From: Candidatus Bathyarchaeia archaeon
Lineage (GTDB): Bacteria; Bacillota; Bacilli; Brevibacillales; Brevibacillaceae
Assembly: GCA_035644815.1 (NCBI GenBank)
Contig: DASQNU010000240.1
Span: 11,422 to 75,421 of the forward strand
Direction: 5' to 3'
DNA: 64,000 nucleotides
Part shown: positions 39,980 to 49,432 of the stretch, in pieces
Layout: each line of letters begins with the position of its first letter
Numbering within the stretch: position 1 is the first letter of the stretch
Position numbers and translations under genes: made by a program
The notes under the pieces: model-generated
The model's input: the letters and a program-made list of their open reading frames with translations, nothing else
Databases searched by the model: none
What the model was told of the DNA's origin: nothing

Positions 39980-41332
39980 TCAGCTGATACTGCCCGATTT
40001 CTCATCCAGTTCAATTAGTGGCGTTTTTCTCAACCGGTAGATTCGGTAAACGAGATAAGCGATACCGATGACTGCCCAACATGCACCAAGCATAAACGAG
40101 CTCGATTCGAGGTTCAGCCATAGTATACCTACGGTAATAGCCCCCGCTAATGGGGACAAAAAGTATTTCAGAAACCCTCTTACTGTTTTGTATTGTTGTT
40201 CCCGGACCACGTAGTGCGCGATGACCGACAAGTTGACAAATGTAAACGCAATGAGCGCACCAAAGTTGAGCAAGGAGACCGCCGTCACCAGATCCAAAAA
40301 GAGGGCTGTCAAGGAAACCAGTCCAACGAAAATCACATTGTAGACAGGTGTACCTCTCTTCGGATGGACGTAACCAAACAGCCGTACTGGCAGCAATTTG
40401 TCTCTACCCATGACGTAAAGCAAGCGTGAAACACTTGCGTGGGAAGTTAATCCGGAAGCAAAATTGGCCATGAACACTGTTGCAACAAATATCGATTGAA
40501 ACAGCGTGCCCCCTACATAAAGGGCAATCTCAGAGCCAGCAGCCTCCACATCCTGAAATCTGGAGACGTCAGGGAAATAGGATTGAATGAAATAAGATAC
40601 GAAGATAAATAATCCTCCGCCAATTAACGCAACCAACAGGATTCCCCGCGGGATATTCTTTTTCGGATCTGGCGTTTCTTCGGACAGGGTCGTGACCGCA
40701 TCAAATCCAAGAAAGGAGAAGCATAATATCGTGGCCCCGGCGATCAACGTACCGAGCGCCATGTCTTCTGAAACGAAGGGCTGCGCTGAAACGATATGAG
40801 CCGTTCCTTCTCCCATCAGTAATCCTCGGACAATGAGCACAATAAAGATGGCGAGAACTAAGAACTGAAACGTGACGAGAAAGGAGTTGAAATTCGCCAT
40901 GATGTTGACGCCCCAGGCATTAATCAAGGTGGAGAGCAATACAACCCCAATAATCAGCACCCAGGAAGGAATATCTGGAAAAATGGAGGTTACGTACATA
41001 CTGATCAAGAGTGCATTTACCATCGGCATAAACAGATAGTCCAGCAATGCTGACCAGCCGACGAGAAAACCGAGATGCGGGTGGATCGTATTCTTCGCGT
41101 ACGTATAAGCAGACCCTGCAGATGGATAGACCCTCACCATATGGCCGTAACTGATCGCCGTAAAAAGCATGCCGACCAAAGCCAAAACATACGCGGTCGG
41201 TACATGCCCAGAGGTCATTTCCGATACGATGCCGAATGTGTCAAAAATAACCATCGGTGTCATGTAGCCGATTCCAATCATGACGACATGCCACAGCTTT
41301 AACGTCCGCTTTAGTTCACCTACAGTTTCCAT
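39980..41332 (-). CDS. APC family permease (PuuP/PlaP-like putrescine importer)
   Basis: GIGYMTPMVIFDTFG, PSAGSAYTY, FSFLGFDAVTTLSEET, SRLLYVMGRD. Confidence 0.85.
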   Translation of the reverse strand: METVGELKRTLKLWHVVMIGIGYMTPMVIFDTFGIVSEMTSGHVPTAYVLALVGMLFTAISYGHMVRVYPSAGSAYTYAKNTIHPHLGFLVGWSALLDYLFMPMVNALLISMYVTSIFPDIPSWVLIIGVVLLSTLINAWGVNIMANFNSFLVTFQFLVLAIFIVLIVRGLLMGEGTAHIVSAQPFVSEDMALGTLIAGATILCFSFLGFDAVTTLSEETPDPKKNIPRGILLVALIGGGLFIFVSYFIQSYFPDVSRFQDVEAAGSEIALYVGGTLFQSIFVATVFMANFASGLTSHASVSRLLYVMGRDKLLPVRLFGYVHPKRGTPVYNVIFVGLVSLTALFLDLVTAVSLLNFGALIAFTFVNLSVIAHYVVREQQYKTVRGFLKYFLSPLAGAITVGILWLNLESSSFMLGACWAVIGIAYLVYRIYRLRKTPLIELDEKSGSIS

Positions 41333-41470
41333 AAGATCCCCCTTTTCGTTACGTTTGTACCTTATACGTTACCAACGAGTAAAATTATGAATAATCAGAT
41401 AATTCCCACCCTCAGATATCTTTCTCTGTGGATCTACCCGCTTTCCTCCTTTCCTTTTGCCAATCTTCTT

Positions 41471-41487
41471 TACAAGTATTGTGCCAA
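41471..41487 (-). promoter_or_regulatory. Sigma54 -24/-12 promoter of the permease gene
   Basis: TTGGCACAATACTTGTA. Confidence 0.75.
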
Positions 41488-41573
41488 CGTTCCCATAAAC
41501 AAAAAATGAATGTTTTTCTCGCCTTTTAAAGACAAATGGTGTATCAACACGGATGTATGCTGGTTGATTAATT

Positions 41574-41609
41574 ATCTAAAAATTGAGAAATTATTCTACA
41601 AAATGAGAA
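41574..41609. promoter_or_regulatory. Candidate activator sites upstream of the permease promoter
   Basis: ATCTA-N6-GAGAA (41574-41589) and TTCTA-N6-GAGAA (41594-41609). Confidence 0.55.
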
Positions 41610-41658
41610 ATTCGCGTTTAGCTGTCTCCTGAATGTGATGCCTTCAGTTTCTTTACAC

Positions 41659-41702
41659 TTGAATCCGTTCAGTTCTATCAGTAAAATGGGAATATACGTT
41701 CG
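41659..41702 (+). promoter_or_regulatory. SigmaA promoter of xerS with an adjacent LexA-like box
   Basis: TTGAAT-17-TAAAAT (41659-41687) followed by GGAATATACGTTCG (41689-41702). Confidence 0.55.
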
Positions 41703-41728
41703 TTTCCACTTGGAATGAATATTTTATT

Positions 41729-42871
41729 TTGGGATCATTGCAGGATGGTGAGATTGCCTTGTCAGTTATAAAAAACAGAGATGCTCTACTATTACTACAA
41801 AGAACACCATTATTCCCCTGGTATGTTGAAAAATATATTGAACATAAAAAGTCCAAGAAAAGCGCCCCATCTACATTGGTGGGATATTTACGTGACTTTG
41901 CGTACTTTTTTCGTTGGATCATGACGGAAGGGTTAACGCAGGCTAAAGAAATAAAGGATATCTCTCTACAAGAGCTAAACGATTTAAAGAAGGAAACGAT
42001 TGAAAGCTATATTGTTTATTTGCAAGAATCTCACTTGGATGAGCGAACGATTTTACTTGATAAACCTACAAAAAGTGCAAAAAAAGAATACAGTGATCAT
42101 ACCATAAACAGGAAGATCTCTAGCTTGAAATCGCTATTCTACTATCTATCCGCTCTTTCAGAGGATGAAAACGGAGAATCGTATTTACATCGCAATGTCA
42201 TGGCGAAAATCGAAACGAATATAGAGACAATCACGCCGTTGGCTCGGGCGCATACGATTCGGGCGAAGATCCTGATCGATGAGCAAATCCATCGATTCGT
42301 CCAATTTGTTTATGAAGGCTATCTTGCCCATTGTGATACGAAAAAGAAACAGCAACACCATCTGCAGAACAGGGACCGGGATACAGCGATCGTAGCGCTC
42401 ATTTTGTCCGGAGGGTTCCGTGTTTCGGAAATCATTAATTTGAACCTTTCCGATATCGCGTTGGAGAAAAATCAATTGAAGATGATCCGAAAAGGCAAGA
42501 AAGAAGATGCACCATTTTTTAGTGACTGGGGCAAAGCCTACTTGATTACATACCTAGAAAACCGTCAGAAGTATAAGCCTGCCGAAGCGGATGATGCCGT
42601 TTTTCTTGCCCTCTCCCCCACAAAGCCTTATGGTCATCGCATCGAGCTTCGGACGGTGCAAAAGTTTGTGAAGAAATACGGCAAAGCATTCGGCATGCCT
42701 GACTTATCGGTCCACAAGCTTAGACATAGTTTTGCCACGCAATTTCTGCGGCTGAATCCAGATCCGCACCAACTGCAAGCACAATTGGGGCATTCCAAGA
42801 TCGATACGACGATGCAGTACGCACATGTACTGGATGACACGCTTAGTAAAGCGATTAACCGTACAACGTGA
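41729..42871 (+). CDS. xerS: Tyrosine recombinase, XerS-like (start possibly the TTG at 41759)
   Basis: Complete catalytic set: GFRVSE, RKGK, HKLRHSFAT, LGH..TMQY. Confidence 0.8.
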   Translation: MGSLQDGEIALSVIKNRDALLLLQRTPLFPWYVEKYIEHKKSKKSAPSTLVGYLRDFAYFFRWIMTEGLTQAKEIKDISLQELNDLKKETIESYIVYLQESHLDERTILLDKPTKSAKKEYSDHTINRKISSLKSLFYYLSALSEDENGESYLHRNVMAKIETNIETITPLARAHTIRAKILIDEQIHRFVQFVYEGYLAHCDTKKKQQHHLQNRDRDTAIVALILSGGFRVSEIINLNLSDIALEKNQLKMIRKGKKEDAPFFSDWGKAYLITYLENRQKYKPAEADDAVFLALSPTKPYGHRIELRTVQKFVKKYGKAFGMPDLSVHKLRHSFATQFLRLNPDPHQLQAQLGHSKIDTTMQYAHVLDDTLSKAINRTT

Positions 42872-42884
42872 CCTAAAAATTTCA

Positions 42885-42938
42885 AAAAGGAGACTCTCTT
42901 TTCCTTCGTATAGAAGTAGTGGAAGGGAGTCTCCTTTT
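42885..42938. terminator. Bidirectional terminator after xerS
   Basis: AAAAGGAGACTC/GAGTCTCCTTTT inverted repeat. Confidence 0.75.
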
Positions 42939-43102
42939 ATATCGAGTATCTATACATTGTCATGATTATCGGTTAAGTGATCGTGCCACACCAATCTTAT
43001 GTATTTTCAGTACACGACTATCAAATCCCCTCTTTTTTACTTCTATTTTCGTTTTAGAAAAAGAAAAAGACCTTAACATGGTCCTTTAACGTTGTGAATA
43101 GG

Positions 43103-43420
43103 CTATTGATGGTTATTCCCCTGTAAGGATAGCATTTGAATGATAGTTTTCATTACAGCATCTTCGTCATTAGAACGGGTAATAAAATTCGCGACATCTT
43201 TTAATTCTTGAACGGCATTTCGGACAGCAAAACTATAGGTAGCACGAGTCATAAGTTCTAAATCATTATAACCATCTCCGAATGCCATTGTTTCTTCAGG
43301 AGTAACATTCAATAATCGTTGCAAGTGTTCAACAATAGTGCCCTTATGAACATTGGCATACGCGATATCGATCCATGCGGCTTCCGAAGCAACGATATAA
43401 GCCGACTCAAAAAACGGATG
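43103..43420 (-). pseudogene. C-terminal fragment of a Cof-type HAD-IIB hydrolase
   Basis: WIDI..NVHKG..L..TMAFGDGYNDLELM..SFAVRNA..KDVANFIT.SNDEDAV; the N-terminal DxD motif is absent. Confidence 0.8.
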
Positions 43421-43516
43421 TAGTTTTCCTTTATTCCCTATTTGTGGTAAGTGATAACAAGACAATATTGTATAATATAGATTAAATTCTTAGTGGGAAG
43501 AGGGTTGAATAAATTT

Positions 43517-44746
43517 ATGCAGAAACTAGGTTTCTCAGTATCACGCCTGCACCGCTTGAGTACAGTCTTGCAAGGTTATGTCGATCGCGGTGAGATTGCA
43601 GGCGTTGTTACCCTGATACACCGGTACGGCGAAGAGGCTTACTTCGATACAATAGGCTGGCAGGACAAAGAGGCACAGACCCCCATAAAGCGGAATACTC
43701 TCTTCCGAATCATGTCAATGACAAAACCTGTAACAGCTGTTGCTGCTTTGATGCTGGTTGAAGAAGGAAAAGTTCGTCTGTTTGATCCCGTAGACACTTG
43801 GCTGCCTGAGTTATCTAACCGGATGGTACTGCGGGATCCGAACGGACCGCTCGACGAAGTCACACCCGCATCACGTTCGATTACGCTTCATGATCTGCTT
43901 ACCTCAACGCTTGGCATTGGTTGGGGGGAACATCAACTGCTGCCTGCCATTTTCAACTTGCTCCCCGCACCTCTTGCGAAAACAATGGGTGCCGATCATG
44001 CCGAACACCTCGATCCTGACGCTTGGATGAAGCGGCTGGGTGAATTACCTTTGGTATATGAACCGGGAAGCCGTTTTCTTTACCATATTGCCTACGAAAT
44101 TCTTGGCGTATTGATTGCCCGGGTTGCAGGAAAACCTTTGGGGGAATTTTTCGAAGAGCGCATCTTCCATCCTCTAGGGATGACGGACACTGGCTTTACG
44201 GTGTCGCCGGAAAAGCGAGATAGGCTGGCTGTCTCCTATGCGCCAGCACCGGATGGAAGTCTCATTGTGCTGGATCGTTCGGAGACTACCGGTTGGTCGG
44301 GAGCTCCGCTCTTCCCTTCAGGAGGAGGTGGTCTCATTTCTACCGCTGACGACTATCAGCGTTTTGGGCGAATGCTCTTGGGCAAAGGAGAACTGAATGG
44401 GGTGCGCATACTCTCCCGTAAGTCTGTGGAGGCAATGACGACGGACTTTTTAACGCCTGAACAGCATGCTCATCCTTTCTTTGATGAAACCGATTATGAT
44501 GGTTCGATGATGTGGACGAACAAAGGGTATGGTTATGGCGTGTCAGTTAGGTCACGACAAATTGGACTTGGGCCGAGCGTTGGTTCCTTCTTCTGGCCGG
44601 GTGCCCTTGGTACGACTTGGATCGCGGACCCAAAAGAGGATCTGATGGCAACTCTCATGGTTCAGCTCCGAGGCGCACAGCTTCCCCAAAATAGCAAACT
44701 CGCATATGACTTTTGGACAATGATGTATCAAGCGATAAATGAATGA
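43517..44746 (+). CDS. Serine hydrolase, beta-lactamase class C/esterase family
   Basis: SMTK (SxxK), LHDLLT, PGSRFLY, LGMTDTGF, SGGGGLIST. Confidence 0.88.
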   Translation: MQKLGFSVSRLHRLSTVLQGYVDRGEIAGVVTLIHRYGEEAYFDTIGWQDKEAQTPIKRNTLFRIMSMTKPVTAVAALMLVEEGKVRLFDPVDTWLPELSNRMVLRDPNGPLDEVTPASRSITLHDLLTSTLGIGWGEHQLLPAIFNLLPAPLAKTMGADHAEHLDPDAWMKRLGELPLVYEPGSRFLYHIAYEILGVLIARVAGKPLGEFFEERIFHPLGMTDTGFTVSPEKRDRLAVSYAPAPDGSLIVLDRSETTGWSGAPLFPSGGGGLISTADDYQRFGRMLLGKGELNGVRILSRKSVEAMTTDFLTPEQHAHPFFDETDYDGSMMWTNKGYGYGVSVRSRQIGLGPSVGSFFWPGALGTTWIADPKEDLMATLMVQLRGAQLPQNSKLAYDFWTMMYQAINE

Positions 44747-44864
44747 TATGCACAGTGGTGCGATAATGCATAGAGCAGTCCTAAGGCTTGACATTAGAAT
44801 CTTAGACTCGCCGCCGTTTTTAAGCTATGGTAGCTCGTTTAATGATGTGTGAGCCAGAATTTAG

Positions 44865-45014
44865 TCAAACCTTTTCCACACCGGGGTGGGCGGCAGCGAG
44901 CTCCACCAGCTTTGCCGCTCCCCGCCCGGACAGCACCGGCGTCCAACCTCGAATCAGCAGTTCCGCCGTCACGAACCGTGCAGCGTGCTCAAAAGTACCG
45001 AACACCGCGATAAC
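44865..45014 (-). pseudogene. GC-rich relic of a Rossmann-fold (saccharopine dehydrogenase-like) N-terminus
   Basis: VIAVFGTFEHAARFVTAELLIRGWTPVLSGRGAAKLVELAAAHPGVEKV*; in-frame stop upstream and no start codon. Confidence 0.55.
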
Positions 45015-45214
45015 CGGCTACACGCCCAATATCCATTACAGGCCATGTAAATATGATACGGAATGCCACCGTAACCGTTCCTTCCATTCATTTGATAGGC
45101 GGCCAGCTTAAAATTGGCGATCTATCAAATAAATCGAAAATAGGGTTTGGGTTAGTTATGTTACTTTTCGGGATTACACGGTTCTCAGTCCTTTCTGAAT
45201 CGTTTTCTAATTGC

Positions 45215-45853
45215 TTATATGCTTTGCTGCAACCTATTTGGCACCACTGGTTTCGTTAGCCAATGCTCATCCGTCTGAACATGATTTTTACGTACGAACT
45301 TCGCTACAGAGCTTTTGAACTCATCGTAATGAAAGGACTCCGCAACCCTAACCACGTAACCTTCTTGCTCGCCTCCAAAAACGGAATGTTGCGTATAACA
45401 GTTTTTTACCTTTTGTTCATTCCACACGCCTCTGTAAAGGACTGGGGCGACTTCTACTCCGAGTAATTTTGCCCAATCCAATGTTTCCTGCCAAGATAGA
45501 CAGTGATTTTCTTCATTCCAGATGGAGAAAATATAGAAGTAGCTAGTCAAATCCTCGTAGTAAATGGAATGCTTGGCAAACACATTTTCACCGCAAATCC
45601 TCCACCCTTCCGGAATATGAAAGGAAATCATTCCATGCAGCATTTTCACCCAATGGCGGGATTCGTGATCTTTGCTATCAAGTGACCTTGCGTGGATGGA
45701 GTCTCGATACATCGTCGTGTTTTCACCATCTAGCTTTTCTGTTACAACCACTTCGCGCCCTTCAAAATGACTGACCGATTTTAGAATTTTATCATCATCC
45801 GTTTTACTTCTCGACCATGGTAGGTGAAAAGTTCTTGGATACTTTGTCCTCAT
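45215..45853 (-). CDS. ATP-dependent RNA ligase family protein (minimal nucleotidyltransferase domain)
   Basis: KYPRT.HLPWS, motif I TEKLDGEN, ARS, ICGEN, FYIFSI, EGYVVR, KFVR. Confidence 0.88.
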   Translation of the reverse strand: MRTKYPRTFHLPWSRSKTDDDKILKSVSHFEGREVVVTEKLDGENTTMYRDSIHARSLDSKDHESRHWVKMLHGMISFHIPEGWRICGENVFAKHSIYYEDLTSYFYIFSIWNEENHCLSWQETLDWAKLLGVEVAPVLYRGVWNEQKVKNCYTQHSVFGGEQEGYVVRVAESFHYDEFKSSVAKFVRKNHVQTDEHWLTKPVVPNRLQQSI

Positions 45854-45863
45854 ACGCTTCACC

Positions 45864-46823
45864 TCATTTCGCATACGCATCTGCTTCTCTAAAGAAGTAC
45901 AGCTTCCAGAGATATTCATCTCCTAGCAAGTGATAAATGTCAGAAATATCTTGCTGTGTTCCATAGTTCATCTTCATATGCATTTGGATCAAATGAACGG
46001 CCTTGAAAATAAACTCTTCTTCAAATTGAAGTTCCTTTAAAAAATGGCAAGCAATTTGTGCAGATACGTATTCGTGTCCATAATACGAGTAATGACCTTT
46101 GGCCGGTTTGTAGGTCTTGCAAAACGGTTTCCCCGTATCATGAAAAAGGGCTACAACCTGCATTAACAACTTATCCTCTTCACTATATAACGCATTGACG
46201 TAATCGAGTACATGATAGGTATGCTTGCAAAGCGTGTGTTGATGGTGAGGATTTTCTTGATGAAAATCTACCATGTCATGAAAAAAAGAGAGTTTGCTCA
46301 AACCATGAAACAATTCTTCATAAGTGGGTTCACCTTGAAGGAGGTCGACAAATGTCTTTTTCGTAATCGCATAAGGCATTTCCTCATGAAGAATGTAAAC
46401 ATGATCGAATCCTTCGTTGAGGATTGGGAAATGAAAATTCTTTCTCATTTTCTCCAAGATGAACCCTGGTACTTTCCTCTTTCTGGATTGGTTTCTTTCC
46501 AAGCAAATGGAATAAGGCACGTTTAGATAGTAGCAATCCTTCTGCACGTTTTTAAATTTGGAGAGTACGTTCATCCGTTTCTCACGATCAAGGTTCGTGG
46601 CATCCAAGATTACATGATTTCCTTTTGCCAGCTCATTTTCGATGCTCGAATATACTTCATAAAAAACTTGAGATGTCTTCTTTTGTTTCCCTTCATCTCC
46701 AAAAAGGGTCTGTCTGATTTCGTCCGTAGAAACAATGGAAGCACGTTCTTTCTTCGCAATTTCTTTGGCCCATTTACTTTTGCCGCTTCCGGGAATTCCA
46801 GCCATCAGTATTAGTTTTTGCAT
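45864..46823 (-). CDS. Polynucleotide kinase (P-loop) fused to a C-terminal HD phosphoesterase
   Basis: GIPGSGKS, STDEIR, DATN, RNQSR lid; HHQHTL..H and LFHDTGK. Confidence 0.85.
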   Translation of the reverse strand: MQKLILMAGIPGSGKSKWAKEIAKKERASIVSTDEIRQTLFGDEGKQKKTSQVFYEVYSSIENELAKGNHVILDATNLDREKRMNVLSKFKNVQKDCYYLNVPYSICLERNQSRKRKVPGFILEKMRKNFHFPILNEGFDHVYILHEEMPYAITKKTFVDLLQGEPTYEELFHGLSKLSFFHDMVDFHQENPHHQHTLCKHTYHVLDYVNALYSEEDKLLMQVVALFHDTGKPFCKTYKPAKGHYSYYGHEYVSAQIACHFLKELQFEEEFIFKAVHLIQMHMKMNYGTQQDISDIYHLLGDEYLWKLYFFREADAYAK

Positions 46824-46884
46824 GTGTTCTCACCTCCTCACCTTGATGAAATTGTTGGGATCGTTTCATTATGTGGGTGACTCC

Positions 46885-46929
46885 TTACATAATTCCCAAT
46901 ATTATCTATGTAATCTGTATTCCTTTCAA
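46885..46929 (-). promoter_or_regulatory. SigmaA promoter of the pnk-HD/rnl pair with an overlapping palindrome
   Basis: TTGAAA-17-GATAAT (46929-46901); TTACATA-N15-TATGTAA (46885-46913). Confidence 0.6.
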
Positions 46930-46981
46930 GCCCCTTTTGACTCAACTAAGGCTTCATCATTTGCCTTTGTGAATGAACAAG

Positions 46982-47012
46982 AAAAAAGGAGCCTTATCGA
47001 ATAAGGCTCCCT
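46982..47012 (-). terminator. Terminator after the small hypothetical gene
   Basis: GGAGCCTTAT/ATAAGGCTCC stem with U run. Confidence 0.75.
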
Positions 47013-47030
47013 TGCAACCGAACACAATCA

Positions 47031-47219
47031 TCAATCTTTCCGTTTCAGATTCACAGTAAGACGATCCGAGCTATTTTCATCGTTATCAAACATGACGAAA
47101 TCATGCACCACAATGCCCTCTACCGTTTGAATCGCCTGAGACATTTTATTCGTTAATTCTTGCATATCGACCTTGTCATTTACATCTACATCTAACACTA
47201 ACACCATTTTTTTCTTCAT
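47031..47219 (-). CDS. Small hypothetical protein (62 aa)
   Basis: GGAGG RBS, MKKKMVLVLDVDVNDKVDMQELTNKMSQAIQ, own terminator. Confidence 0.6.
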   Translation of the reverse strand: MKKKMVLVLDVDVNDKVDMQELTNKMSQAIQTVEGIVVHDFVMFDNDENSSDRLTVNLKRKD

Positions 47220-47501
47220 GCCAAAAAGCCTCCAGGATTCATTAATTAGTATCGTGCTATTCATACAGTTACCTTAAATCTCATTCCTTAATGAAGTCAC
47301 CTAGCATTTTATAAAAAATTGGATTCCCTGGGAAGCAAAAATTTAGAACGAGTAACTATATTGACAATGAGACGCGTACCTATGCTTTTATTGTAAAAAA
47401 GGCTATGTTACTTTTGAATGTTGATTTTCAGTCAAAAATATACCCGTCCTGTAATGGCGGTTTATAAAGCCATCGTAACCCGTTTGTGCAATAAGAATAG
47501 C

Positions 47502-48284
47502 CTAGTTAAGACAAGTTTCTATACAATTGTTCATATATGTAACGAATGCATTCACCTCTGAATCTAGTCCTTCCCAACTTTCATTACTTTCACCTCGATA
47601 GGCTTTTTTTGCTATATCTAGTAAAGTTGCTTGCTCTTTGGGCAAAAGAGGTATAGCCCATTCTGCAGCCATATCTTTTGGAGAAATGTCACCGGTAGTT
47701 ACTGTTTGCCACATTCGAGCCAGGGTTAAGATTACATTACGCTCATCACCTTTGATACCCTCAATCAACTCTGGCAATGAATCCTTAATTGCTCTTCGAA
47801 TATCTGTCATTGGCACGGGGGCAAGTGTATTTGTAGCATCAGGACCAAATAGAGAAATACTATTCTTTCTTACTTGTGCTAAAACAATAGCCAAATCAGG
47901 ATCATAGCTTGGTTTTTGAATTTCTCCATTCTCAAACTCGTTCCTGAGCCACTCGCCATAGATAAATTCTTTTTTGGGGGGATAACGCCAGGGTACAACA
48001 TCGCTTTGGTTGATAACTGTGAGTTCAAGTGGTCTCAAAGAATTTGTATTTCCTATCTTTCCAGATATATGCATTAATTTGTTAGTTAGTTTTTTTCGAG
48101 TTACTTCAGGTAAACTTTGATTCACTAGCATTAGGACATCAACATCACTATTAATGCGTAAACCACCATTTACTGCAGAACCAAACAAATATACACCAAC
48201 TATCATGCTTCCAAACAAATCCTCTACAATTTTTAATGCTTCTATAGCTAGCTTCGGTATTTTTTCATTTCTCAAGTCACTCAT
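47502..48284 (-). CDS. ant(9): Spectinomycin adenylyltransferase ANT(9)
   Basis: GSAVNGGLRINSDVDV, RPLELT, WRYPPKKEFIYGEWLR, GDERNVILTLARMW; closely resembles Tn554 Spc by recall. Confidence 0.9.
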   Translation of the reverse strand: MSDLRNEKIPKLAIEALKIVEDLFGSMIVGVYLFGSAVNGGLRINSDVDVLMLVNQSLPEVTRKKLTNKLMHISGKIGNTNSLRPLELTVINQSDVVPWRYPPKKEFIYGEWLRNEFENGEIQKPSYDPDLAIVLAQVRKNSISLFGPDATNTLAPVPMTDIRRAIKDSLPELIEGIKGDERNVILTLARMWQTVTTGDISPKDMAAEWAIPLLPKEQATLLDIAKKAYRGESNESWEGLDSEVNAFVTYMNNCIETCLN

Positions 48285-48509
48285 AAATTCAAAACTCCTC
48301 TAGACTATGTTCAATTCGAGTACGTTATTTTGATTTTGTTAGTATTAGATGAAATGACTATTAATAGGAACATAAGACAAAGAAGGATACAAATCAACTA
48401 TTATGCCAGTTAGTTCAACAGCAAGCCTCCGTCGAGACTGGTATTCGTATCCTTCACAGAAAACAAGCATGAAGACACCAACATGTTTTTCTTATTCGAT
48501 GCCGTGTTC

Positions 48510-48629
48510 TCATATCACTCGGGTAGGGGCTACTGCACCTTTGGTTTCCGACTGCAAGAAGAGGATAAGCTGCTGCTTATCCCGATTGTCCAAACCCTTA
48601 GCAAGTTCAATCAGTTCTCTCAAATCCAA
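48510..48629 (-). pseudogene. Possible N-terminal transposase remnant
   Basis: MDLRELIELAKGLDNRDKQQLILFLQSETKGAVAPTRVI* begins about 90 bp inside the IR, then stops accumulate; family assignment is inferred from position and recall. Confidence 0.45.
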
Positions 48630-48718
48630 AGGGCTTCAACTCCAACAAATAATTACCATTATTAAAGAACCAAATGTTCGTTAATTTCAAATATCAACAT
48701 TGAAGTTTAACATAGCCT

Positions 48719-48766
48719 AAAAAAAAGTCGTACCCACTTAGAATTTGAATTGGGTACAACGACTTC
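48719..48766 (-). terminator. Terminator of the organosulfur operon
   Basis: GTCGT(..)ACCCA/TGGGTACGAC stem with an A run. Confidence 0.7.
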
Positions 48767-48886
48767 TTCTCGCACATAAAAATCGGGTAATGAACATCCC
48801 TACTATCTCAATTTAATGGCTTGAAGGCAGGTGTGGATTAGGCCGATAGCAAGACCATTCCATTGATCGAATCATTCGTAAATGCT

Positions 48887-49432
48887 TTATGGCTCCAAAT
48901 AGCCGGATGTTGTATCTAACTGTAACCAATAGCTTTTTACATTCGTTTCTCCATTAAAAAAGTCTTTTTCCTGCGCTCGCGTAAACCCCAAACGCTCATA
49001 CAATTTCACGGCTGCAACCATCATGTCAGTGGTGTGGAGATGCACGGTGGCTGCGTCTTTTTCCCTCAAGCGTTTGACACATTCCCGAATCAACCGCTCT
49101 GCAATCCCATTTCCTCTTGCTTTGGGAGATACAGCCAAATATCGGATGATCGGCGTATGGATATTCAGCTCTGGCCGGTTATAAGCCACATCCGATGAAT
49201 CGAACAGTTGTACACTGCCAACAATTTCTTGTCGCCAGCAAGCTACTAGAAACGCCATGGCATGACTTCCTTCGGCTGATTCAAGAATCTCTTGCTTGTA
49301 TTGCTTCCATTTTTCAGCGCTCAGATGCTGTTCATACTGCTCGTATGATTCGATCAAGTGTTTTCTGATTTGCTCTCGGTCCTGTGTCCACGCATCGCGG
49401 ATGGTAATATCGTTTATGTAGAGTACACGCAT
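48887..49432 (-). CDS. GNAT family N-acetyltransferase
   Basis: IRYLAVSPKARGNGIA acetyl-CoA motif, AVKLYERLGF. Confidence 0.9.
   Translation of the reverse strand: MRVLYINDITIRDAWTQDREQIRKHLIESYEQYEQHLSAEKWKQYKQEILESAEGSHAMAFLVACWRQEIVGSVQLFDSSDVAYNRPELNIHTPIIRYLAVSPKARGNGIAERLIRECVKRLREKDAATVHLHTTDMMVAAVKLYERLGFTRAQEKDFFNGETNVKSYWLQLDTTSGYLEP

Follow-up and report, generated by a model that had tools for sequence, protein, structure and literature searches.

What function is served by two adjacent minus-strand genes that occupy positions 45215 to 46823 of a 64,000-nucleotide stretch of contig DASQNU010000240.1 (assembly GCA_035644815.1; the whole stretch analyzed is referred to below as the window), in a genome placed by GTDB in the Brevibacillaceae? 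One gene encodes a protein, here called Pnk-HD, in which a polynucleotide kinase domain is followed by an HD domain, and the other encodes a very small predicted RNA ligase. Repair of broken RNA by healing of the ends and subsequent sealing is well established, being represented by T4 Pnkp/Rnl1, Pnkp/Hen1, RtcB, and HD-Pnk with its ligase. The domain assignments, conservation of catalytic residues, invariable linkage, and evolutionary origin observed for the present genes suggest that they probably constitute a two-gene module that is self-contained and repairs broken RNA by healing and sealing. An earlier interpretation made from the DNA letters alone (the sequence-only reading) had proposed an RNA end-healing and sealing module here, and the domains, catalytic residues, and linkage described below support it at the level of sequence analysis.

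A kinase-HD fusion protein and a minimal RNA ligase

The Pnk-HD gene (45864..46823, minus strand, stop codon included) encodes a protein of 319 amino acids, as defined by its open reading frame (ORF) and by matches to the Pfam families AAA_33 and HD. The 5′-OH polynucleotide kinase domain (46374..46823, minus strand; residues 1-150) matches AAA_33 at residues 4-133 with an E-value of 6.7e-26, far beyond chance, and the HD phosphohydrolase domain (45867..46256, minus strand; residues 190-319) matches Pfam HD at residues 201-293 (E 5.9e-7; 30.2 bits, compared to a cutoff of 22). Among NCBIfam models, the N-terminal half resembles the kinase part of bacterial Pnkp (TIGR04075, region 10-158, E 1.4e-17), a match that is confined to the kinase part and, at 63 bits, stays below the cutoff of 750, while residues 191-290 resemble the HD region of the CCA-adding enzyme (TIGR02692, E 2.2e-13). 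As judged from sequence, the HD domain thus appears nearest to those of CCA/A-adding enzymes; no HAD (DxDxT) domain was found in Pnk-HD by Pfam and NCBIfam profile searches. The nearest solved relatives by sequence are the kinase domain of Clostridium thermocellum Pnkp (CthPnkp; 4gp7, E 1.2e-12) and T4 Pnk (1ly1, E 8.5e-8). An AlphaFold2 model of Pnk-HD was obtained with a predicted local distance difference test (pLDDT) score of 93 and a predicted template modeling (pTM) score of 0.91, and the top Foldseek matches of its kinase half were 4gp6, also CthPnkp (TMt 0.75; root mean square deviation [rmsd] 2.4), followed by T4 Pnk; the structure search also returned mammalian PNKP and 4xrp as similar kinase folds. 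Searches of the Protein Data Bank (PDB) by both sequence and structure recovered no solved structure joining a kinase and an HD domain as in Pnk-HD.

The catalytic residues were compared across an alignment of 24 homologues with identities down to 32%. The kinase residues match those of CthPnkp one-to-one. A Walker A motif, GxxxxGK(S/T), is present as G9-I-P-G-S-G-K15-S16, with G9, S13, G14, and K15 invariant; the presumptive general base Asp34 (invariant) and Arg37 (conserved in at least 90%) align with the SSDFCR segment of CthPnkp; Asp74-x-Thr76-Asn77 is invariant or nearly so; and the lid segment ERNQSRKRK aligns with ERNKNR of CthPnkp, with Arg114 invariant and Arg110 and Arg116 conserved in at least 90%. 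The equivalents of Asp34 and Arg37 that bind the 5′-OH nucleoside are Asp35/Arg38 in T4 and Asp38/Arg41 in C. thermocellum. In the HD domain, which also carries His194, Lys232, and Glu251, the complete set of metal ligands (His201, His228-Asp229, His250, His282, and Asp315) is invariant. The Pnk-type strings on which the sequence-only reading had based its kinase assignment (GIPGSGKS, STDEIR, LDATN, and RNQSR), as well as those from which it deduced a C-terminal HD fusion (HHQHTL..H and LFHDTGK), are all present.

The second gene (45215..45853, minus strand) is predicted to encode an ATP-dependent RNA ligase of 212 amino acids. The longest ORF would give 234 amino acids (45215-45919); the ATG at 45853-45851 was chosen as the true start because the resulting protein is aligned by tblastn with 14 orthologous loci from residues 1-4 onward, and homologues are 206-220, mostly 209-215, amino acids long. 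The protein matches Pfam RNA_ligase (PF09414; E 9.2e-34, 117.5 bits against a cutoff of 27), again far beyond chance, and not PF09511, the Rnl1 family; the phage families phrog_34045 and phrog_24030 match it at ~1e-79. Motifs I to V are all represented, and their key residues are invariant in 26 homologues: K40-L-D-G-E (I), R56 (Ia), E89 (III), F109 (IIIa), E164-G165 (IV), and K185/R188 (V). The strings KLDGEN, CGEN, FYIF, EGYVVR, and KFVR are likewise present and conserved, in line with the minimal RNA ligase that had been suspected from the letters.

The AlphaFold2 model of the ligase (pLDDT 91.4) has the strand and helix pattern of a single compact domain, and it indicates that the protein is a nucleotidyltransferase (NTase) domain only; a separate accessory domain is not accommodated, since 212 amino acids are too short for one when motif I starts at residue 40 and motif V extends to residue 188. 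The top PDB folds for the model were the Rnl5-type NgrRnl (6vt4, E 1.3e-6) and T4 Rnl2 (2hvq and 1s68), with superpositions that cover the NTase domains only (TMq ~0.53, TMt ~0.35) at 17-21% identity. Of 36 PDB matches at E<=0.001, 29 were RNA or tRNA ligases and seven were DNA-ligase entries (3qwu and 6imj/6imn, for instance), and no significant sequence match to any solved ligase was obtained, profile search included. Based on the model, the ligase appears to resemble the nick-sealing enzymes Rnl2 and Rnl5, not the tRNA-loop ligase Rnl1.

Coupling and linkage of the two genes

The stop codon of Pnk-HD (TGA, 45866-45864) overlaps the ribosome-binding site (RBS) of the ligase gene (GAGGTGA, 45865-45859; together 45859..45866, minus strand), which lies 5 nucleotides before the ligase ATG, as had been noticed at first sight of the sequence. 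The ligase begins 10 nucleotides past the Pnk-HD stop, and gaps of ~10-30 nucleotides recur in all orthologous loci. This arrangement is that of translationally coupled genes, as far as sequence can indicate.

Linkage of the genes in other genomes, which had been set beforehand as a test capable of refuting the proposed module, was found at every orthologous locus (30 of 30). In a collection of species-representative genomes, all 14 loci have the ligase gene directly downstream of Pnk-HD, and 16 of 401 evenly sampled Bacilli genomes encode a full-length Pnk-HD with at least 48% identity and all 16 have an adjoining downstream ligase. When the same 401 genomes were searched with the ligase, full-length copies were detected in exactly those 16, along with two short relics, and in a phylum-level sample of 400 further Bacillota genomes no full-length ligase was found. 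Pairwise identities of Pnk-HD and of the ligase correlate with r = 0.93 across 25 distinct loci, a value that indicates co-inheritance but is not a statistical proof, as the relatives are not independent. The pair is inherited as one unit.

The carriers are spore-forming Bacillales, and the distribution among them is patchy: the pair is present in neither of two other genomes of the same genus and in 8 of 19 genomes of the neighboring genus. Intact frames and invariant catalytic residues are nonetheless retained in at least four Bacillales families, down to 45-48% identity. Among the candidates scored, 182 Pnk-HD homologues were recovered at E<=0.001, the best 120 of which are mostly ~313-335 amino acids long. 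None of the genes that neighbor the pair in the window recurs beside it in the 14 Brevibacillus and Aneurinibacillus loci; the sequences upstream fall into several unrelated contexts, flanks differ between species, and in Bacillus wiedmannii and Paenibacillus the surroundings of the pair consist of unrelated housekeeping-type genes. A search of the orthologous loci for a third gene that is conserved (toxin, Hen1, RtcB, or RlaP) found none. PADLOC returned weak Cas3-HD and generic kinase matches for Pnk-HD and none for the ligase; the pair is not a catalogued defense system.

Certain copies deviate from this pattern. In the loci of Brevibacillus sp. SYSU BS000544 (L009/L020) and B. fluminis (L014), one Pnk-HD is frameshifted near residue 277 and the other is cut to residues 88-319, with the ligases intact, and the two relics (G249:C1:1884648-1884869 and G295:C78:83339-83446) consist of ligase remnants of 60-78 amino acids only. 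Such decaying copies imply that the cassette is lost as well as gained. In B. wiedmannii, a gene of the metallo-beta-lactamase (MBL) fold with a weak match to the Anti-Pycsar protein Apyc1 lies directly downstream of the ligase (L073:7870-8736 and L074:5975-6856); it could be a second phage-derived gene of counter-defense type, or merely a generic MBL hydrolase.

Phage relatives and origin of the pair

Proteins with the kinase-then-HD order form a family of 191 clusters (50% identity) at E<=1e-30, nearly all colinear and 300-345 amino acids long, and only about four of these clusters represent the Bacillales chromosomal clade. Full-length colinear homologues with 34-36% identity, annotated as polynucleotide kinase, are encoded by Tsamsa-like Bacillus phages, in which the Pnk-HD gene adjoins an upstream gene for a 385-amino-acid Rnl1-type "tRNA ligase"; a paper on these phages reads the kinase/tRNA ligase pair by analogy with T4 (PMC9703825). 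In one Bacilli genome (L032), a Pnk-HD homologue of ~35% identity likewise adjoins an Rnl1-type ligase, the stop codon of one gene overlapping the start codon of the other. Across 70 viral Pnk-HD loci, an Rnl1-type ligase was located within 4 kb in 20, a 313-amino-acid Rnl2-like ligase was located in seven, and a close copy of the minimal ligase in none; the 47 loci scored as ligase-free are an overestimate, the Rnl1 profile having been built from three sequences. Because Pnk-HD associates in this way with a second, unrelated family of RNA ligases, there is good reason, by guilt-by-association, to think that Pnk-HD feeds a ligase. In a FastTree phylogeny of 62 viral and 25 Bacillales Pnk-HD proteins, the Bacillales sequences form one clade (support 1.0), and the sister group contains the Tsamsa-like phages.

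The minimal ligase belongs to a much larger family (5,474 clusters at 90% identity) that is also well represented in viruses, with 337 relatives on viral contigs and identities of up to 64%. About 50 of the 80 viral ligase loci examined encode a protein of minimal size, about 28 encode one with an N-terminal extension of 130-170 amino acids that has no Pfam match, and an HD domain was found within 4 kb of the ligase at none of the 80. The top structural match in BFVD is a 204-amino-acid phage ligase (TMq 0.77, TMt 0.80). In an IQ-TREE phylogeny, 24 of the 25 Bacillales ligases group in a single supported clade (99/93) that is embedded in viral sequences.

The simplest history is one in which the Rnl1 partner of a phage-lineage Pnk-HD was lost and a minimal ligase of phage type was acquired downstream, after which the cassette spread horizontally among Brevibacillaceae, Paenibacillaceae, and Bacillaceae-type genomes. 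The pair is an accessory element of aerobic, spore-forming Bacillales that moves horizontally and was assembled from phage-type parts.

Other arrangements of these components were encountered in viral sequences. A 167-kb phage-like metagenome contig (L075:4857-10344) carries a row consisting of an Rnl1-type ligase, Pnk-HD, a weakly matching radical-SAM protein (295 amino acids), a 313-amino-acid PF09414 ligase, a 73-amino-acid ORF, and a CCA-adding enzyme; the radical-SAM gene is wedged between the repair genes, and a nicotinamide mononucleotide (NMN) transporter gene and a YAcAr gene are nearby. On another viral contig (L107:106-8617), the minimal-ligase domain occupies residues ~1299-1510 of an uninterrupted frame of ~2,800 amino acids, which may be an example of the polyvalent phage proteins reported in PMC5512222. 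The Caulobacter CcrBL9 and Acinetobacter ME3 jumbo phages encode ligase homologues of 359 amino acids (L046:3045-4124 and L047:3045-4124), whose N-terminal extensions of ~150-180 amino acids have no Pfam or PDB sequence match and might be Rnl5-like N-domains.

Putative transcription unit and genomic setting

A consensus scan identified a promoter-like site, TTGAAA-17-GATAAT, upstream of Pnk-HD (46901..46929, minus strand; a consensus match only, at 10 of 12 positions), and the 5′ boundary of the module is marked by a strong intrinsic terminator with a 13-bp stem (46985..47013, minus strand) that belongs to an upstream 77-amino-acid ORF. In orthologous loci, too, an upstream terminator is followed by a sigma-A-like −10 element and a strong RBS. 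These features suggest that the pair is its own transcription unit, with a putative promoter. Inspection by eye of the upstream regions of 30 loci revealed neither a conserved LexA-type box nor a riboswitch-like leader.

The guanine-plus-cytosine (GC) content of the pair is ~39-43%, compared to ~50% in the surrounding core genes, and the pair lies within a low-GC stretch of the window (41200-49000; GC 0.36-0.44, versus ~0.50 outside). This stretch also contains a tyrosine integrase (41729-42871), a C-terminal fragment of a Cof-type HAD hydrolase (43103-43465) that matches only profile positions 168-255 of 255, the orphan 77-amino-acid ORF upstream of the pair (47031-47264), and an ant(9) cassette (47502-48284), and it looks like a mosaic accessory island. 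The 77-amino-acid ORF has no Pfam match and is absent from the 14 related loci compared. No phage structural genes were found around the pair in the window or in the B. wiedmannii and Paenibacillus loci.

Proposed repair mechanism and alternative explanations

We infer the enzymatic steps, the complex, the substrate, and the biological trigger of this module as follows. The N-terminal P-loop domain of Pnk-HD would move a phosphate from a nucleoside triphosphate (NTP) onto a 5′-OH end, and the C-terminal HD domain would open a 2′,3′-cyclic phosphate and strip the remaining 2′- or 3′-phosphate, leaving a 2′-OH and a 3′-OH. This second healing step rests on analogy with the HD domain of the Escherichia coli CCA-adding enzyme. 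The 212-amino-acid ligase would then self-adenylylate on Lys40, activate the new 5′-phosphate, and join it to the 3′-OH. Since the ligase has no accessory RNA-binding domain, it probably acts on nicks in structured or duplex RNA, and it may rely on Pnk-HD as a partner. Most likely, the module counters RNA breaks made by ribotoxins, for instance interbacterial RNase toxins, toxin-antitoxin RNases, or abortive-infection nucleases. The sequence-only reading had proposed repair against anticodon nucleases, toxins, or self-inflicted defense cleavage: its RNA repair component is supported by the present results, while tRNA cut by anticodon nucleases as the target is its least secure part, given an Rnl2/Rnl5-like ligase and no nuclease or toxin gene that accompanies the pair. 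A bolder extension, which is offered tentatively and is rather doubtful, holds that the 212-amino-acid protein is the smallest working ATP-dependent RNA ligase, in an obligate complex with Pnk-HD that supplies RNA binding in trans, and that the pair confers broad, toxin-agnostic immunity on aerobic spore-formers against interbacterial and abortive-infection RNases; if true, a tool that otherwise belongs to phage counter-defense would here serve the host.

Several observations weigh against an RNA repair function of the pair. The C-terminal domain of Rnl2 and the N-terminal domain of Rnl5, both absent here, are needed for full nick sealing, as known for T4 Rnl2 and DraRnl. RtcB is encoded as well, on a different contig of the genome; in the B. 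wiedmannii and Paenibacillus neighborhoods, the pair is not consistently accompanied by a ribotoxin gene; decaying copies of the cassette occur; and no solved member was found for either the Pnk-HD or the ligase clade of Bacillales. Furthermore, the small ligase beside the Runella HD-Pnk forms the enzyme-AMP intermediate but joined none of the substrates tried (PMC6097658). This last result lends some weight to the idea that the ligase-like protein is a non-sealing, self-adenylylating NTase, involved in RNA 5′-adenylylation or other end modification, and that the pair processes RNA ends instead of rejoining them. A protein reduced to the NTase domain would suit that role, and the isolated NTase domain of T4 Rnl2 cannot perform step 2 of nick sealing. 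Such a function is nevertheless unlikely, considering that every ligase motif is invariant, IIIa, IV, and V among them, that related phage modules hold bona fide Rnl1-type ligases at the same position, and that the stand-alone minimal form in ~50 of 80 viral loci, together with the 204-amino-acid BFVD match, argues for an enzyme that works alone.

A different substrate is envisaged if the module mends nicks in DNA or RNA:DNA hybrids (5′-OH/3′-phosphate DNA breaks or breaks at embedded ribonucleotides), as might arise in dormant spores or through oxidative damage. That possibility is judged improbable: the ligase falls in the RNA-ligase family PF09414 and not in a DNA-ligase family, its best folds are RNA ligases, and no LexA-type box is visible upstream, even though the carriers form spores and mammalian PNKP is among the structural matches of the kinase. 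A DNA oligonucleotide was phosphorylated by Deinococcus PNKP, for which a role in DNA repair has been discussed (PMC1997131), and the Runella HD-Pnk is termed a DNA/RNA end-healing enzyme in the title of Munir and Shuman (2017) as cited in PMC6097658; in phages, however, the Pnk-HD homologues adjoin Rnl1 tRNA-type ligases and CCA-adding enzymes. It is also conceivable, though very unlikely, that the pair consists of leftover phage counter-defense genes that drift between Bacillales chromosomes and serve no host function, as might be suspected from a Pnk-HD clade sister to Tsamsa-like phage enzymes, a ligase nested among viral ligases, the patchy distribution, the decay of some copies, and the low-GC island with its integrase. 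Preservation of frames and catalytic residues in several families argues against mere drift, as do the putative promoter and strong RBS of the pair and the lack of phage structural genes around it in the loci named above; in addition, this specific pairing was not found in the sampled viral loci (80 for the ligase and 70 for Pnk-HD). On balance, repair of broken RNA by healing and sealing is the function that best accounts for the pair.

Comparison with characterized repair systems

Polynucleotide kinases that carry an HD phosphohydrolase domain have been described as a subfamily, and both 3′-phosphatase and kinase activities have been reported for the enzyme of phage RM378 (Blondal 2005, as cited in PMC1997131). 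In the RM378 protein (361 amino acids), the HD domain spans residues 17-123 and the kinase residues 190-317, each being 25-27% identical to its counterpart in Pnk-HD (27% and E 1e-8 for the two HD domains). RM378 PNK was considered as a characterized enzyme of the same architecture and was ruled out, as its HD domain comes first. The reversed order that the sequence-only reading had ascribed to known HD-Pnk enzymes is thus borne out for RM378, and no assayed or solved enzyme with the kinase-then-HD order was found in the literature or the PDB. HD-Pnk proteins, as exemplified by those of Runella slithyformis, RM378, and Deinococcus (DR_B0098), possess the same two catalytic domains, namely a T4-type kinase and an HD phosphoesterase, but in the order HD then kinase; Pnk-HD is therefore not a member of that family by architecture, although the domains are homologous. 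Like the present pair, the Runella HD-Pnk is coupled by overlapping or near-overlapping ORFs to a gene for a small, ATP-dependent ligase-type protein; the Runella ligase gene lies upstream, whereas the ligase gene here lies downstream, and neither Tpt1 nor MTase-HIT genes are found near the present pair. A few jumbo phages also encode HD-like phosphatases alongside polynucleotide kinases and ATP-grasp RNA ligases (Iyer et al. 2021, PMC7824862).

The Pnkp/Hen1 and Pnkp1-Rnl-Hen1 systems have a homologous kinase domain (TIGR04075, 4xrp) and a heal-and-seal function that the present pair would share, while the pair differs in having no metallophosphoesterase domain and an unfused ligase. A Hen1_L search of the genome gave no match, a weak negative given that control genomes gave none either and no positive control was available; this result and the location of RtcB on another contig agree with the earlier remark that neither partner is nearby. 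No PF09511 (Rnl1) match was found in the genome, in a search that had no positive control. With regard to the ligase, the nucleotidyltransferase motifs are common to Rnl5 (Naegleria NgrRnl and Deinococcus DraRnl), T4 Rnl2, and the 212-amino-acid protein, which is without the N-terminal domain of the former and the C-terminal domain of the latter.

The pair differs from established repair systems in three respects: a kinase-then-HD order for which no assayed or solved member was found; a bare-NTase ligase from a very large clade in which no structure has been solved and no assay came to light; and a clear displacement of the ligase partner, with Rnl1 in the sister phage lineage and the minimal ligase in Bacillales. 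As a compact two-protein system in relatives of genetically tractable model species, the pair could reveal what a minimal RNA ligase needs for sealing, how an HD domain heals 2′,3′-cyclic phosphate ends, and which RNA damage is mended by free-living soil bacteria.

Further parallels are found in phages. T4 Pnkp and Rnl1, which repair PrrC-cleaved tRNA-Lys, follow the same logic, in that a kinase and a 3′-end phosphoesterase reside in one polypeptide and the ATP-dependent RNA ligase is separate, and the kinase domains are homologous (1ly1; rmsd 2.4). The T4 system, however, is phage-borne and employs a DxDxT (HAD) phosphatase with Rnl1, whereas the present one is chromosomal and combines an HD domain with a 212-amino-acid Rnl2/Rnl5-like NTase. 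The Tsamsa-like phage pairs share the Pnk-HD architecture itself and its adjacency to an RNA ligase gene, but their Rnl1-type ligase lies upstream, in contrast to the unrelated minimal PF09414 ligase located downstream here. Kinase-HD and RNA ligase pairs are already known to be common in phages, where they are annotated as polynucleotide kinase and RNA ligase, and the Bacillales pair represents a rearranged, chromosomal form of RNA-repair equipment already familiar from phages and bacteria; it does not establish a biological category of its own.

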